64,000 nucleotides of DNA from Octopus vulgaris (Eukaryota): positions 128,278,001 through 128,342,000 of the forward strand of contig OX597819.1 of the NCBI GenBank assembly GCA_951406725.2, given 5' to 3'. The position numbers were made by a program, and so were the translations under genes. The notes beneath the pieces are model-generated. The model was not told the DNA's origin, did no database searches, and saw nothing but the letters and a program-made list of their open reading frames with translations. Of the stretch, positions 18,996-61,574 are shown one piece after another; within the stretch, counting starts at the first letter, position 1, and every line of letters starts with the position of its first letter.

Positions 18996-19397
18996 ATATA
19001 AGGGGCCAAACACAAAGGGCACAAACAAGGACAGACAAACGGATTAAATCGATTACATCGACCCCAGTGCGTAACTGGTACTTAATTTATCGACCCCGAA
19101 AGGATGAAAGGCAAAGTTGACCTCGGCGGAATTTGAACTCAGAACGTAGCGGCAGATGAAATACCTATTTCTTTACTACCCACAAGGGGCTAAACACAGA
19201 GAGGACAAACAAGGACAGACAAACGGATTCAGTCGATTACATCGACCCCAGTGCGTGACTGGTACTTAATTTATCGACCCCGAAAGGATGAAAGGCAAAG
19301 TCGACCTCGGCGGAATTTGAACTCAGAACGTAATGGTAGACGAAATACGGCTACGCATTTCGCCCGGCGTGCTAACGTTTCTGCCAGCTCGCCGCCC
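18996..19397 (-). mobile_element. SINE family B, one head plus two tandem bodies
   Basis: Reverse complement of family B; body repeated twice. Confidence 0.85.
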
Positions 19398-39056: not shown

Positions 39057-39300
39057 ATAATGTAAAGTATAGAAGCCATCTTATCATGGCTAACCACACT
39101 GGGGAGGGGGTTGTTACTGTAGGTTTATAGCCCCAAGAGATCTTCGTCTCTAGCTGGCTCTAAACACAATACCTGTGTCTTTGGAGTGTTTGCAAAGGGA
39201 GGCCATCCCTTCCTCGCAAGCCTGAGTGATACGCTCGAACTAGTTTCGGGATGTTTGTCCCTTCGTCAACGGGCGGGAACCACCAGGTAAAGCGATGAAA
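39057..39300 (-). mobile_element. Hammerhead-bearing ~360-bp monomer, part 1 (continues at 42668)
   Basis: Near-identical to 42785-43027; hammerhead motif at 39233-39274 on minus strand. Confidence 0.8.
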
Positions 39301-42300
39301 TTTTCTTTTATTATGATCAATAGATCTAACATAGAATGGGTACATTACAGGACAAAACAATTACAAAAATGCTATGCGAGTTCGAGTGAAATTATAAAAT
39401 TTACAAAATTAAAATTTTATGTAACTTGTACGAAAACTTGGCTTACTTTGCCTTGAAACGAAACCTTGGCTTACTTTTGCCTTTATCACGAGAACTTTTA
39501 GTGCGTATGTTTTCTTTTCTTTTCTTTTTTTATTATTAATTCTTTATTTTAAACAGTTATGTACAGTGAAAGGTAATGGGAGTGTACCAGTTTCAATTTT
39601 GAACCCGGCAGCCTATAAATCCCAGCAGCTGAATTTTCCCTTTCCTCGATGACGTTTGGGTTACTCTCACCCACCTTTCTCATCACATCCTTCCAACGTT
39701 CCATATACTCTTTTCTTGTGGCAGGCTCCTCTTCTCCAACCCCATCTTGCTCTTCAGATGATATCCGAAGTATTTTAACAAACCGGGCGCCAGAGATAAA
39801 GGACCCTTTCACTCAGACCTTCCACTCTAGTTCTCCATACACACTCTTTCAATACTGCCACCGTACAGTAAAACAAGCCCTTACCTTCCTTTGAGAGTCC
39901 AGTTGGCGGTATCATCTTAATCATAGGATCCAGCCGACAGCTGTACTCGTCCCAGATGCGACAACACGTAATTCCACGTAACTTATCAAGTTCGACAGCT
40001 CCCGACATTGTACAAAAGCGTGTTGAACGGTTTCCATCGTCCAACCCACATCTTGGACACGTCGGTGGCACTGACATTCTGTGCCTGACAACTTCTCGCG
40101 AACAGGTAATGCATTCCTATAGCACTTGCCAGGTCAGGGATTTTTGGTAATTATCCAAATACCCCGGCCTGAAAGTCTTCTTAAACAGGTTGGAGAAAGT
40201 TGATCCTTCATCGAACCCTACAGAGCCCTTCCTAGGACGTCGTCATTTTTTCCTCCTACCAGCCCTTTATAGAACACCGAGGTGGTATTCCCCGCTGCCG
40301 GCCTTACCCATCTTGTGGATCAGCCAGAGTGCCTGCCGGCACCCTTCTGCCATGAAGTCAGTTTACGTCCTTTAATGAGACCGGGTGCGTAAATCCCTTC
40401 CATAGAGGCCGGTCGCGGGAAGAATTCCTCTGCCAGCGAACTCCACACCCTTATCATCCTCCAGGTAACACCAGAGATGTCTCAACTCCTCAACGCATGC
40501 TTGCGCATCATTAGCCAAGGCATCCCCCAGTCCACCCTTTAGCGGTTCCTGGCAACACACGGAGCGTCTCACAAGTGGCTTTCCTCCTTTCCACAAAAAG
40601 CGGAAAATGAGTCGTTCCAACTTGTTTAACCACGAATCGGGGCAAGGCACGACGGTCAGCGCGGTAGGTGACGACAGAGGCTATAAACATCTGTGCCATC
40701 TCCGCCCTCACTTTCAAGGAAAGATGCCTTCCGGACCACTTCCGTACTATGGCATCCACCTTGCTCATTACCTCGCCCCAATTCTTTCTCCGTCTGGGAG
40801 TCTGGACCACACCAGACTCCGAGCAATTTAACAGGACCATCCGTCCAGTGTCCAACAACACTGGACGGTATCGGCTTGTTCCCTCCAGGTGCCGAGGCGC
40901 AAACCGATGGACTTGTCCCTGTTAACTTTTGCCCCTGCCACCGTTAACTTGTCCTCATAACTTTTGCTCCTGCCGGGCCAACGTACTTTCTCTCGGTTGT
41001 CACCTCCTGGGTGACATCCTTAATGAAGCCGGCTTTGCTGGCTTTGTCTTTCCATCCTTCTTCTTCGCCGACTTCTTCCATATCGCCACTCCGCTTCCTT
41101 CTCGGTCGCTTTGTAGCACCTGATCAGCGTACTTGCTTTCACCCATGTCTCTACTCTCACGTTCTTTGTGGTGTATGGCGTAATAATTTTTTCGTTGGGT
41201 TGTGAAGTCCTTCTTACAGTTGGGGGTGGGGTTTGTTAAAGTGCTGGCCTATAAGTGTAGTACTGCCGGGGTGGGGATTGGAGAATATTTTTAATTTGTT
41301 CGTCTGCGTTGTTTTTTTTTTTTGATACGGGTGGGGAGTCAGGGGTGATGGATTTTTTCCTTTTGTTGGACACGTTCGTAAATTCCATGTCTTCTTGTAT
41401 ATTTGTTTTTGTTGTCTTAATTTCCTCCTCCTTTCCTTTCTCATTTTGCATTTCGTTCTTTATTCTTCCTCCTTTTTGGAGTTCGACCTGTTTATTTTTT
41501 CCTCCTTGCTTTCGCCAGCCGTTACTTTTTTCTCCACTTTTGCTGCTTTCTGCGTTCTTCACAGCGTTTTTTTGGGGGGGGTATTACCCGCATTATTTTT
41601 TTTTTTGTGCAAACGGAGCGAACGTGGCCCTTTTGCTCGCACTTAAAACATCTGGGCCTGCGTCCTTCCACCGAAACTCGTATGGAGTGCCCCCTCCCCC
41701 ACGAAGACTCTGTCTGGTAGGCCGGGATTATCCGCCGGGATTATCATCTCCAGCTGCTGGCCTCTCCAATGTTTTGCAATTTTCCTCTCTTACATACTCA
41801 AAATTGTCAATTTCCGATTCAACATCAAAAATGACCGCTGTTGCCGCCCACATCACGTCGTAGCCCGCTGGTATATCTTCTAGGGTCGCCTTTGCGGTTA
41901 TTCTGCATCCTCAAATATATGGGTAGCAGTATTATACTCTCGTTTTTCAACGTTTGTGTCGAAATTTGCCTTGCTACTTCCGCCGTCTCAAAATGCGCCT
42001 CCAATGTAGCGCTTCTTGCACCTCGGTTGACATGACTAACTTTACTCCATATTGGAGCCATACACTTTTCGACCATTTCGTTTTTTACGTCGGTCATTCG
42101 TTTTTTCTTTAATATTGCACACCTTGTAGGTGACCATTTTTTCCTTTTTATTGCCCGTATAGTTTCGGGGGCGGGTACCAATCGTGTTTCTTCACCACTT
42201 TTTTTGCACCAGTGGTTCTGAATCCCAATAGTTTTTCCATTGACACCCTCCATTTCTTCGACTTCGCTGTCTACGGCGTCTGAAAAACTGGGTTTTGCCT

Positions 42301-42649
42301 GTGTTTCCTTTTGTTTAACAGTTGTTATACTTTCTCCCATCTCGGGACAGTCTTTTGAACTTAAGTCTAATTCCATACATTAGACAACACAAACTTGTCA
42401 CAAATGACAAGAGAAATTTTTTTTTTTTTTCAAAAAAATAACCTATACAGGTTAAGAGTTCACACAAAAAAACAATTGGTGAAATTTTCTACCCCGAAGG
42501 GCGAAAAATTACCGGGTCAAAAACAGTTCAACAATGTAGAGTTATTACGTGTAACACGACAAAGTAGACAAACGGAAACGAACTCAACACGCAACGATTT
42601 GCAGCAACAGAAAAATATTGGTATACGCCGAGGAAAAATCTCAAAAAAA
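39301..42649 (-). mobile_element. Tx1/L1-clade LINE, internally deleted, with TSD
   Basis: TSD caccaggta(aa)gcgatgaaa at 39281-39300 and 42650-42667; A-rich 3' end. ORF1 relic with CCHC knuckle CFKCEQKGHVRSVC (41650-41609). ORF2 C-terminus GAKVNRDKS, VKLLGVW, WSGRHLSLKVR, LIFRFLWKG, KGGLG, CPRC. Confidence 0.9.
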
Positions 42650-42667
42650 CACCAGGTAGCGATGAAA

Positions 42668-43282
42668 GTGAAGGATCCTTTGCAAACAAATATAAGTTTT
42701 TTCTAATGGCGTCTGCCACTGATGTCGAAAACGAACAGTAGGTATAATTAAATCTCAGAATGAGATTGAAACAGTAATCGCTCGATAATGTAAAGTATAG
42801 AAGCCATCTTGATCGAGGGCTAACCACATTGGGGAGGGGGTTGTTACTGTAGCTTTATAGCCCCAAGAGATCTTCGTCTCTAGCTGGCTCTAAACACAAT
42901 ATCTGTGTTCTTGGAGTGTTTGCAAAGGGAGGCCATCACTTCCTCGCAAGCCTGAGTGATACGCTCGAACTAGTTTCGGGATGTTTGTCCCTCGTCAACG
43001 GGCGGCAACCACCAGGTAGCGATGAAAATGAAGGCTCTGGTGCAAACAGATATAAGTTTTTCTAATGGCGTTCTGCCACTGATGTCGAAAAACGAGGGGA
43101 CAATCATCCCGAAACTAGTTCGAGCAGTACTACACTACAGGCTTGCGAGGAAGGGATGGCCTTCCTTTGCAAACACTCCAAAGACACAGATATTGTGTTT
43201 AGAGCCAGCTAGAGACGAAGATCTCTAAGGGCGTTAGTAAAGCTACAGTAACAACCCCCTCCCCAATGTGGTTAGCCATGAT
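42668..43282 (-). mobile_element. Remainder of monomer 1, monomer 2 and an inverted partial copy
   Basis: Direct repeat of the 39057 unit starts at 42785; 42818-42995 is inverted at 43092-43277. Confidence 0.8.
42963..43003 (-). ncRNA. Type I hammerhead-like ribozyme (UUGACGA core)
   Basis: gcccg-TTGACGA-ggga caaaca tccc-GAAA-ctag-TT-cgagc; palindromic AACTAGTT stem III; C3U in both monomers. Confidence 0.65.
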
Positions 43283-43757
43283 GTGTCTACGTGTGTGTAC
43301 GTACGCATATGTGTATTCCGATTTAATATTAATTGAAATTCATACAAAAACGTATAAATAGACGTAAGGCAAATCAAACTAGAAATATATAAATATTTGT
43401 TCCTCATAAATTTTTGTAGACAAGCACTCGCGCGATATATTTATACATACAGAAACACAAAACACATATATATGCATGTATGCGTGTATATATATATATA
43501 TAAACACAAAGACATGTATGCGTATATAAATGCGCACACATATATGTGTGTGTGTATAATAACGATATATTATTATTTATAGGTTTCTGAATATATATAC
43601 ATATATAAATAAAAAATTACAAGTATAAAACCCCCGCCGCACACACATCTTTGTGTGAGTGTGTGTGTGTGTGTTTGTGTGTGTCTTTGTGTGTGTGTGC
43701 TTGTGTGTGTGTGTGTCTTTGTGTGTGTGAGTATGTGTTTATGTGTGTGTGTGTGTT

Positions 43758-61177: not shown

Positions 61178-61574
61178 CTAGCAGTATCGCCCGGCGTTGC
61201 TCGGGTTTGTAAGGGAAATAACTATATAAGCATTTTTAGAGATGTAAAGTATAATAGCCATCTCAATATGGCTAACCACAAAGGTGGGGTGGTTACTGTA
61301 GCTTTTTACGTTCTGAGATTTAATAATAAATTTTTAGAGAGTTACTTCCCTTATATATGCCAAAAATGCATTAAAAATGGGAAAAATTGATGGTAAATTT
61401 TTTTTTAAATCGTAGACTCATCGTAGACGAGCGCTAGTACCCAGAAGGGCTCGATATGAATCACGACTATAAGATACCCGGTTTTGGTTAAACTGCACCG
61501 CAAAATGTGGGAATAGTTAGGAATCTAAATCGTAGGAGACAGACAGCACACAACCTCACTTTTATATATAAAGA
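61178..61574 (-). mobile_element. Non-autonomous Helitron with a nested 87-bp insert
   Basis: 3' end matches 32960-33016 (cccgagcaacgccgggcgatactgCTAG); 5' end TCTTTATATATAAAAG. Confidence 0.75.

Follow-up and report, generated by a model that had tools for sequence, protein, structure and literature searches.

NeSL is a LINE of spliced-leader genes. R2 is co-transcribed with 28S rRNA (PMC4494074). For the Tx1 clade, passages of PMC4494074 report the insertion of Tx1L into Tx1D, of Tx1-Mar into Mariner-N4 and of Tx1-9_AMi into Harbinger; the legend of its Fig. 3 also names a 'satellite' target, which may or may not be a hammerhead repeat. A LINE is regarded there as target-specific if more than 20% of its flanks are of one sequence type. 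Keno, a Tx1-clade element, and Utopia are specific for U2 genes and insert before nucleotide 39, according to passages of PMC4640811. Among hammerhead repeats, non-LTR retrozymes are the subject of PMC7229834 and of the preprint bioRxiv 10.64898/2026.07.22.740005, the hammerhead of the newt satellite is described in PMC6155905, and transcription of newt satellite 2 is reported to depend on Pol II and an snRNA promoter (PMC2220036, citing Coats 1994); the passages of these sources on non-LTR retrozymes and newt satellite 2 mention no dedicated LINE parasite. Excerpts of PMC6155905 attribute a short helix III with a palindromic tip to dimer-cleaving hammerheads, and excerpts of PMC8557442 assign partial tandems, inverted pieces and (TA)n ends to the architecture of Penelope-like elements. 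Literature searches listed no LINE described as having hammerhead retrozymes or U2 +1 as its target; figures, supplements and Repbase may hold the 'satellite' target. The words 'hammerhead' and 'ribozyme' are absent from the text of the 2026 octopus repeat paper PMC13282606, as is the term 'Tx1' from the text of the 2026 retrozyme preprint cited above.

The window, i.e. the whole 64,000-nucleotide stretch of DNA analysed here, contains a LINE inside a 360-bp hammerhead repeat, with the following features:

39057-39300, minus strand: downstream part of a family-A retrozyme (-4 to about +240 from ATCG), matching 42785-43027 at 94.7% and ending at a (TA)n tract
39232-39275, minus strand: type I hammerhead 1 (core TTGACGA, GAAAC, GUU triplet), predicted cut between 39238 and 39237
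39281-39300, minus strand: 3' copy of the target-site duplication, 20 nt (2-nt insertion), ATCG +1 at 39296
39301-42649, minus strand: L1/Tx1-type LINE, internally deleted (full length about 5.5 kb), without poly(A) tail, AATAAA at 39307-39312
39660-40943, minus strand: C-terminal ORF2 remnant, from about residue 712 of 1134, zf-RVT region, frameshifted
40943-40975, minus strand: junction of the deletion of about 2.25 kb, common to locus L031
40975-42376, minus strand: ORF1 region, frameshifted, reaching the deletion; CCHC knuckle in intact copies
42650-42667, minus strand: 5' copy of the duplication, with the putative transcription start (ATCG +1) at 42663
42668-43027, minus strand: whole 360-bp retrozyme monomer
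42718-42723, minus strand: ATCAGT, PSE-like motif 60 bp upstream of +1, now before the LINE
42962-43004, minus strand: type I hammerhead 2, predicted cut between 42968 and 42967
43010-43027, minus strand: empty target site, +1 at 43023, PSE-like motif at 43078-43083
43028-43091, minus strand: partial monomer, candidate promoter part
43092-43282, plus strand: inverted, truncated retrozyme piece (Penelope-type inverted end)

The 18-mer CACCAGGTAGCGATGAAA occupies 42650-42667 and is found again at 43010-43027, while the opposite junction of the LINE carries the same sequence with two extra bases. The first-pass annotation had described this duplication, an empty site in the second monomer and a common orientation of the LINE and the ribozyme, and each is borne out, the LINE and both hammerheads all lying on the minus strand. 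The distance of about 7 bp that it gave between duplication and ribozyme needs correction, as the gap is 5 nt before core helix I; the last 7 nt of the duplication constitute the extended arm of this helix. The surrounding repeat is a partial tandem of the 360-bp unit with an inverted piece.

The window copy is an internally deleted form of the 5.5-kb element, lacking about 2.25 kb that include the endonuclease and the YADD motif of the reverse transcriptase (RT). Locus L031 lies at a distance of 48 Mb and matches the window copy in its deletion, inversion junction and private flank variants, with no substitutions in 241 bp of downstream flank and unrelated outer flanks, and the two were counted as one insertion copied as a unit. 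It is likely that the window copy is a non-autonomous deletion derivative that was copied together with its retrozyme flanks. The two LINE sequences differ by 40 substitutions and 72 gaps, an indel rate of about 2% over 39301-42649, as against 5-16 gaps over 5.5 kb in other close LINE pairs; this difference suggests consensus errors in the window sequence, and the frameshifts at 39301-42649 may be assembly errors. Elsewhere in the window, a 70-bp fragment at 61242-61308 is 80% like the retrozyme, and a 184-bp unit is present in two copies at 19000-19348, which we take to resemble a common cephalopod SINE-like repeat.

The hammerhead named in the first-pass annotation is upheld by its core motif and by covariation but not by Rfam detection or folding energy. 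No hammerhead was returned by an Rfam scan of 39060-43320, only miRNA-type matches on microsatellites occur among the 150 matches listed for the whole window, and the folding energies of the two hammerheads are not separated from those of shuffles (z -0.39 and -0.24). The assignment is based on the core motif and on a comparison of 23 sequences drawn from four families, in which 94% of the cells of helices I-III are paired and 9 of 13 pairs show a compensatory change. The covariation score of 0.578 was reached by 0 of 500 shuffles, a result to be taken as support and not as a probability since the 23 sequences are related; when the partners were shifted, the highest score was 0.158. Taken by itself, the number of changed pairs is not significant, as 106 of the 500 shuffles reached it. 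The cores in 67 flanks include CTGATGA (10), TTGACGA (14), TTGATAA (11), TTGACAA (6) and CCGATGA (10). An exchange of C3-G8 and U3-A8 is known in hammerheads, and the variation CUGAUGA/UUGACGA/UUGAYAA matches it. Hammerhead 1 of the window copy has one additional A before helix II. Helix III is short with a palindromic tip.

A tandem unit of 150-450 bp with a type I hammerhead, together with self-cleavage and circular RNA, characterises non-LTR retrozymes, and the octopus repeat combines a 360-bp unit with covarying helices I-III and predicted self-cleavage. Thirty family-A loci contain partial tandems and variable inverted, 5'-truncated pieces, and end with a bias at AT-rich or (TA)n DNA, features of Penelope-like non-autonomous elements, which have a pseudo-LTR in common with an autonomous partner; family-A copies usually end near 243 or 284-289. 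A first look yielded 1557 candidates for family A and 2428 for family D.

Full-length members of the LINE family are about 5.5 kb long and encode a CCHC-containing ORF1 and a 1134-aa ORF2 with an APE endonuclease, an RT and a C-terminal zinc motif, the two-ORF layout of Tx1-type elements, intact in L036, L054 and L041. The closest named relative of the LINE protein is found in Argonauta hians (65% over the RT region). The RT matches a catfish protein named 'transposon TX1 149 kDa' by NCBI with 298 bits (BLASTP) and human L1 with 216 bits (phmmer), two scores that are not comparable. No curated Tx1 reference occurs among the matches of the protein searches; in a tree of 29 rows, built without an L1 row or curated Tx1L, the LINE joins a vertebrate group including the catfish TX1 protein (92/90, not starred). 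The LINE likely belongs to the Tx1 clade, the label given in the first-pass annotation. An A run longer than 5 is absent at all 97 LINE ends examined. The main family is low-copy. A second lineage (lineage 3) is about 83% identical to it, and a non-autonomous relative of 1.6 kb carrying ORF1 only, with 281 candidates (L127:143-1750; L204-L244), uses the main-family target in several retrozyme families.

Flanks were surveyed across the 2.8-Gb genome by scoring the best 40 of 329 candidates of the main family, the best 40 of 281 of the ORF1-only relative and the best 40 of 494 of the remaining lineage; older LINE copies are under-sampled because only the best 40 candidates per search were scored. 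In the main family the 3' flanks comprise 27 retrozymes (A 4, B 8, C 8 and D 7), 4 cases of U2 +1, 5 tandem cases, 3 others and 1 locus without a 3' end. In the tandem cases the LINE 3' end abuts the 5' end of another LINE-type element bearing a target-like leader; traced onward, three lead to a retrozyme site and one to U2, the fifth being L059. An exact 22-nt 3'-end pattern has 27 matches genome-wide, all already within the 40-locus set. Of the 25 intact 5' ends examined, 17 lie behind the upstream region of a retrozyme, 3 behind a U2 promoter and 5 behind the 3' end of another element. The 30 lineage-3 loci fetched of the 40 best matches comprise 29 retrozyme cases and 1 tandem, and the best 40 of the ORF1-only relative comprise 28 retrozyme cases, including a fifth family E, 4 tandems and 8 others; three ORF1-only and two lineage-3 loci were first met as tandem partners. 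Pooled over the three lineages, 84 retrozyme, 4 U2 and 10 tandem ends are on target among 110, and 12 of the 110 are off target or unclassified.

With 100,000 sites and a tolerance of 7 bases, a hit by chance is estimated at about 1e-4 per insertion. The shares of retrozyme flanks (27/40, 29/30 and 28/40) exceed the 20% required of a target-specific LINE and are not due to hitchhiking. When 491 bases spanning the 3' junction were compared with sequencing runs, contigs from X3 and X10 (organisms B and D) were found to join LINE ends to flanks of families B and C; a contig of run X12, guessed to be RNA (depth 4.6) and possibly DNA, bridges the LINE/retrozyme junction and spans the predicted cut. 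The insertion is repeated, oriented and base-precise in three related lineages and five retrozyme families, and we regard the targeting as real and genome-wide with near certainty. The proposal of the first-pass annotation that this LINE family targets a ribozyme retroelement is thus supported at 27 of 40 loci, which end at the same retrozyme site, and unrelated flanks, which would speak against it, were found at only 3 of the 40 3' ends. As a single-target proposal it was narrower than the facts, U2 +1 and related lineages being involved as well; the annotation also overlooked the PSE-like motif of snRNA-type promoters and the internal deletion.

Two loci of unusual structure may be mentioned. 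At L040 (G000:C10:101.157 Mb, ambiguous and therefore counted as 'other'), a 5'-truncated LINE is capped by an inverted retrozyme piece and followed on its 3' side by 9 nt of target and a fragment resembling, by eye, a Penelope RT/GIY-YIG ORF. At L055:3479-6502, about eight 364-bp family-E retrozyme units form an array behind the LINE 3' end.

The hexamer ATCAGT begins 57-61 bp ahead of +1 in every one of 20 U1 genes; among 28 U2 genes that have no LINE in front of them, 27 show it at this distance. In the retrozymes it starts 57-60 bp before ATC at 17 of 30 sites of family A, where many of the misses have truncated or inverted upstream parts, and at 7/8, 3/3 and 5/13 sites of families B, C and D, respectively, against a background rate of 0.0017; family E has the variant ACAAGTG in its place. 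An element of this kind, about 60 bp upstream and common to U1 and U2, would correspond to the proximal element of an snRNA-type Pol II promoter, a promoter type whose start at +1 depends on SNAPc. Because of this spacing, the same as in U1 and U2 genes, the LINE likely inserts where an snRNA-type (U1/U2-like) promoter starts transcription. A run of T near +290 and AT-rich DNA at -30 led us to consider a Pol III promoter of the U6 type, which was rejected, since ATCAGT is absent from five of five tandem U6 genes and the LINE begins with a run of T6-7. No LINE was found within 1.5 kb on either side of 20 U1 loci, although the same motif is present there; therefore, the promoter alone is insufficient for targeting. 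The U1 genes (L165-L184) begin ATACTTACCTGG, which is similar to ATCGCTACCTGG of retrozyme A, possibly by chance. Dispersed U6 copies (L145, L150, L159-L161 and L164) are directly followed by a common GGCGGTGCCCCAGC-like sequence and are probably U6-retroposon chimeras.

The four full-length U2 insertions read share one order: U2 promoter, 17-bp U2 duplication, ATCGCTACGTGGTG and LINE. The leader ATCGCTACGTGGTG equals positions +1 to +14 of retrozyme A with one change and, followed by TTT, occurs four times in the genome, always on U2-inserted LINEs. The simplest reading of this leader is that the source RNA of the U2 insertions began at retrozyme +1; where the leader starts is uncertain by 1 nt, and the four copies that bear it derive from a single recent source. 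No leader is seen on L216, a full-length ORF1-only copy that lies off target. The U2 duplication extends from about -3 to +14, so that an intact U2 coding sequence remains behind the LINE but is separated from its promoter. These insertions would mark an ongoing switch in which a common start-site sequence takes the LINE from a parasitic target to an essential gene of the host. Weak ORF1 matches (tblastn, 28-41%) recur in tandem-U2 spacers (L138-L140, U2 cluster G000:C3:20.78-20.81 Mb) and were rejected as +1 insertions on inspection of the loci.

Site-specific insertion at an snRNA-type start, combined with capture of the promoter by the LINE, is the model that we consider probable. Insertion duplicates 14-18 bp of target immediately before the hammerhead fold or, in U2 genes, at base +1; it would begin with a nick by the APE endonuclease near +1 (-4 to +1, depending on lineage and target), followed by a second nick at about +14 to +17. 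The captured promoter of the target may then give rise to a LINE RNA beginning with 14 nt of target, which could read through into the downstream target copy, pair with the nicked strand and prime reverse transcription at the LINE end; such pairing would account for the lack of poly(A) tails. A weak sign that some bases were templated by RNA comes from L307 and L318, whose 3' copy has ATCG where their 5' copy has GTCG or ACCG. Read-through transcripts may be trimmed by the hammerhead downstream, whose predicted cut lies 63 nt past the LINE end. The geometry fits such cleavage, but the LINE has its own AATAAA and the X12 contig, guessed to be RNA, spans the predicted cut. More doubtful is an extended version, in which the LINE would be steered to active snRNA-type starts partly by the promoter complex, the retrozyme would serve as an expression cassette (5' promoter, 3' hammerhead) and the RNA between hammerheads would be a LINE-carrying retrozyme movable as a single unit by Penelope machinery. 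If true, it would constitute a three-level parasite loop that spilled onto host U2 genes.

Copying of the LINE as a passenger, i.e. the amplification of one or a few chance insertions by the retrozyme through Penelope-driven or segmental copying, occurs in single pairs, namely in the window copy and L031 with their shared deletion, inversion junction and flank variants, and in L062 and L063, which are duplicates. As the origin of the whole family it is contradicted, and extremely improbable, in view of near-identical LINEs in retrozyme flanks about 71% alike and in U2, of truncated copies with exact duplications, and of the three lineages and five retrozyme families involved. Between L032 (family A) and L036 (family B) there are 28 differences in the 5.5-kb LINE and 54 in about 240 bp of retrozyme flank, while L041, inserted in U2, differs from L036 at 22 positions of the LINE. 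Exact-site duplications flank the 5'-truncated copies L056, L307, L319 and L323, several with private variants on both sides, and L061 has an exact 5' junction. Since near-identical LINEs lie in unlike targets and 5'-truncated copies have exact duplications, the insertions are independent; the comparison of truncated and full-length flanks is of the same kind as the hitchhiking control found in the passages of PMC4494074. When 20 lineage-3 loci were extended upstream, 14 proved full length, all 14 behind the putative retrozyme promoter region with a duplication; the other six comprise three truncated exact cases, two that fall short of the site in the upstream monomer and one with an unrelated 5' flank. 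That the 5' duplication is merely a LINE leader was rejected, as private target variants are duplicated (L050, L056, L319 and L320). A 12-kb palindrome (L037/L038, G000:C4:124.124-124.138 Mb) has one full LINE per arm, with 1 substitution between the LINEs and 8 in 236 of retrozyme flank, a pattern suggesting that one source inserted twice into a palindrome of retrozymes.

The remaining explanations concern what sets the target. Sequence preference of the endonuclease could suffice if the LINE had an internal promoter and its overlap with start sites were incidental. TT(C/T)ATCG is common to families A-C and U2, the U1 genes with their PSE-like motif but another start sequence have 0/20 insertions, the single family-D site of lineage 3 reads ATCG at the 3' junction, and passages of PMC4494074 state that target choice is set mainly by the endonuclease. 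However, targets D and E are little like A in sequence and yet are struck at the equivalent position, and the leader on U2 insertions starts at the equivalent of U2 +1, 59 bp from the same motif, which makes this account unlikely. U2 or another snRNA gene might also have been the ancestral target, as for Keno, which passages of PMC4494074 list as a U2-specific Tx1 element, with the retrozymes acting as decoys similar to it. Per site U2 is often struck, 2 of the top 30 U2 genes being preceded by the LINE compared with a few dozen insertions among thousands of retrozymes. This history is nevertheless very unlikely, since the U2 insertions are restricted to the youngest LINE subgroup and bear a leader of retrozyme origin, none of the 70 ends from the two other lineages has a U2 flank, and the site of Keno and Utopia lies before nucleotide 39 (passages of PMC4640811). 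Insertion at the start site with promoter capture is thus retained as the preferred model.

Ribozyme retroelements thereby join the list of LINE targets with genome-wide support, and the leader, together with the common motif, predicts the promoter and start of invertebrate retrozymes. The intact ORF2 copies of an APE LINE with precise but varied targets may be useful in distinguishing between sequence, RNA pairing and promoter tethering in target choice.

Like the Tx1 elements of mobile-element targets, the octopus LINE is an APE-RT LINE with a fixed site in a multicopy mobile element, a long duplication and tandem re-insertion, and for those elements too transcription from the flanking target has been suggested; unlike them, it has as its target a hammerhead retrozyme at a likely transcription start, common to a host snRNA gene. 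It shares U2 insertion and tandem copies with Keno and Utopia, but U2 is a minor target and starts at +1 right behind the LINE, unlike the arrangement in Keno. The inferred dependence on the target promoter and the target-derived sequence at the RNA ends are reminiscent of R2 and NeSL, which use a restriction-like endonuclease and host genes, whereas the octopus LINE has an APE endonuclease and would use the promoter of a parasite. The repeat itself resembles non-LTR retrozymes and newt satellite 2 in its tandem unit of about 360 bp, type I hammerhead and Penelope-type architecture, and differs from these in its mollusc-type host, its variant cores that are missed by Rfam, and its dedicated LINE parasite.
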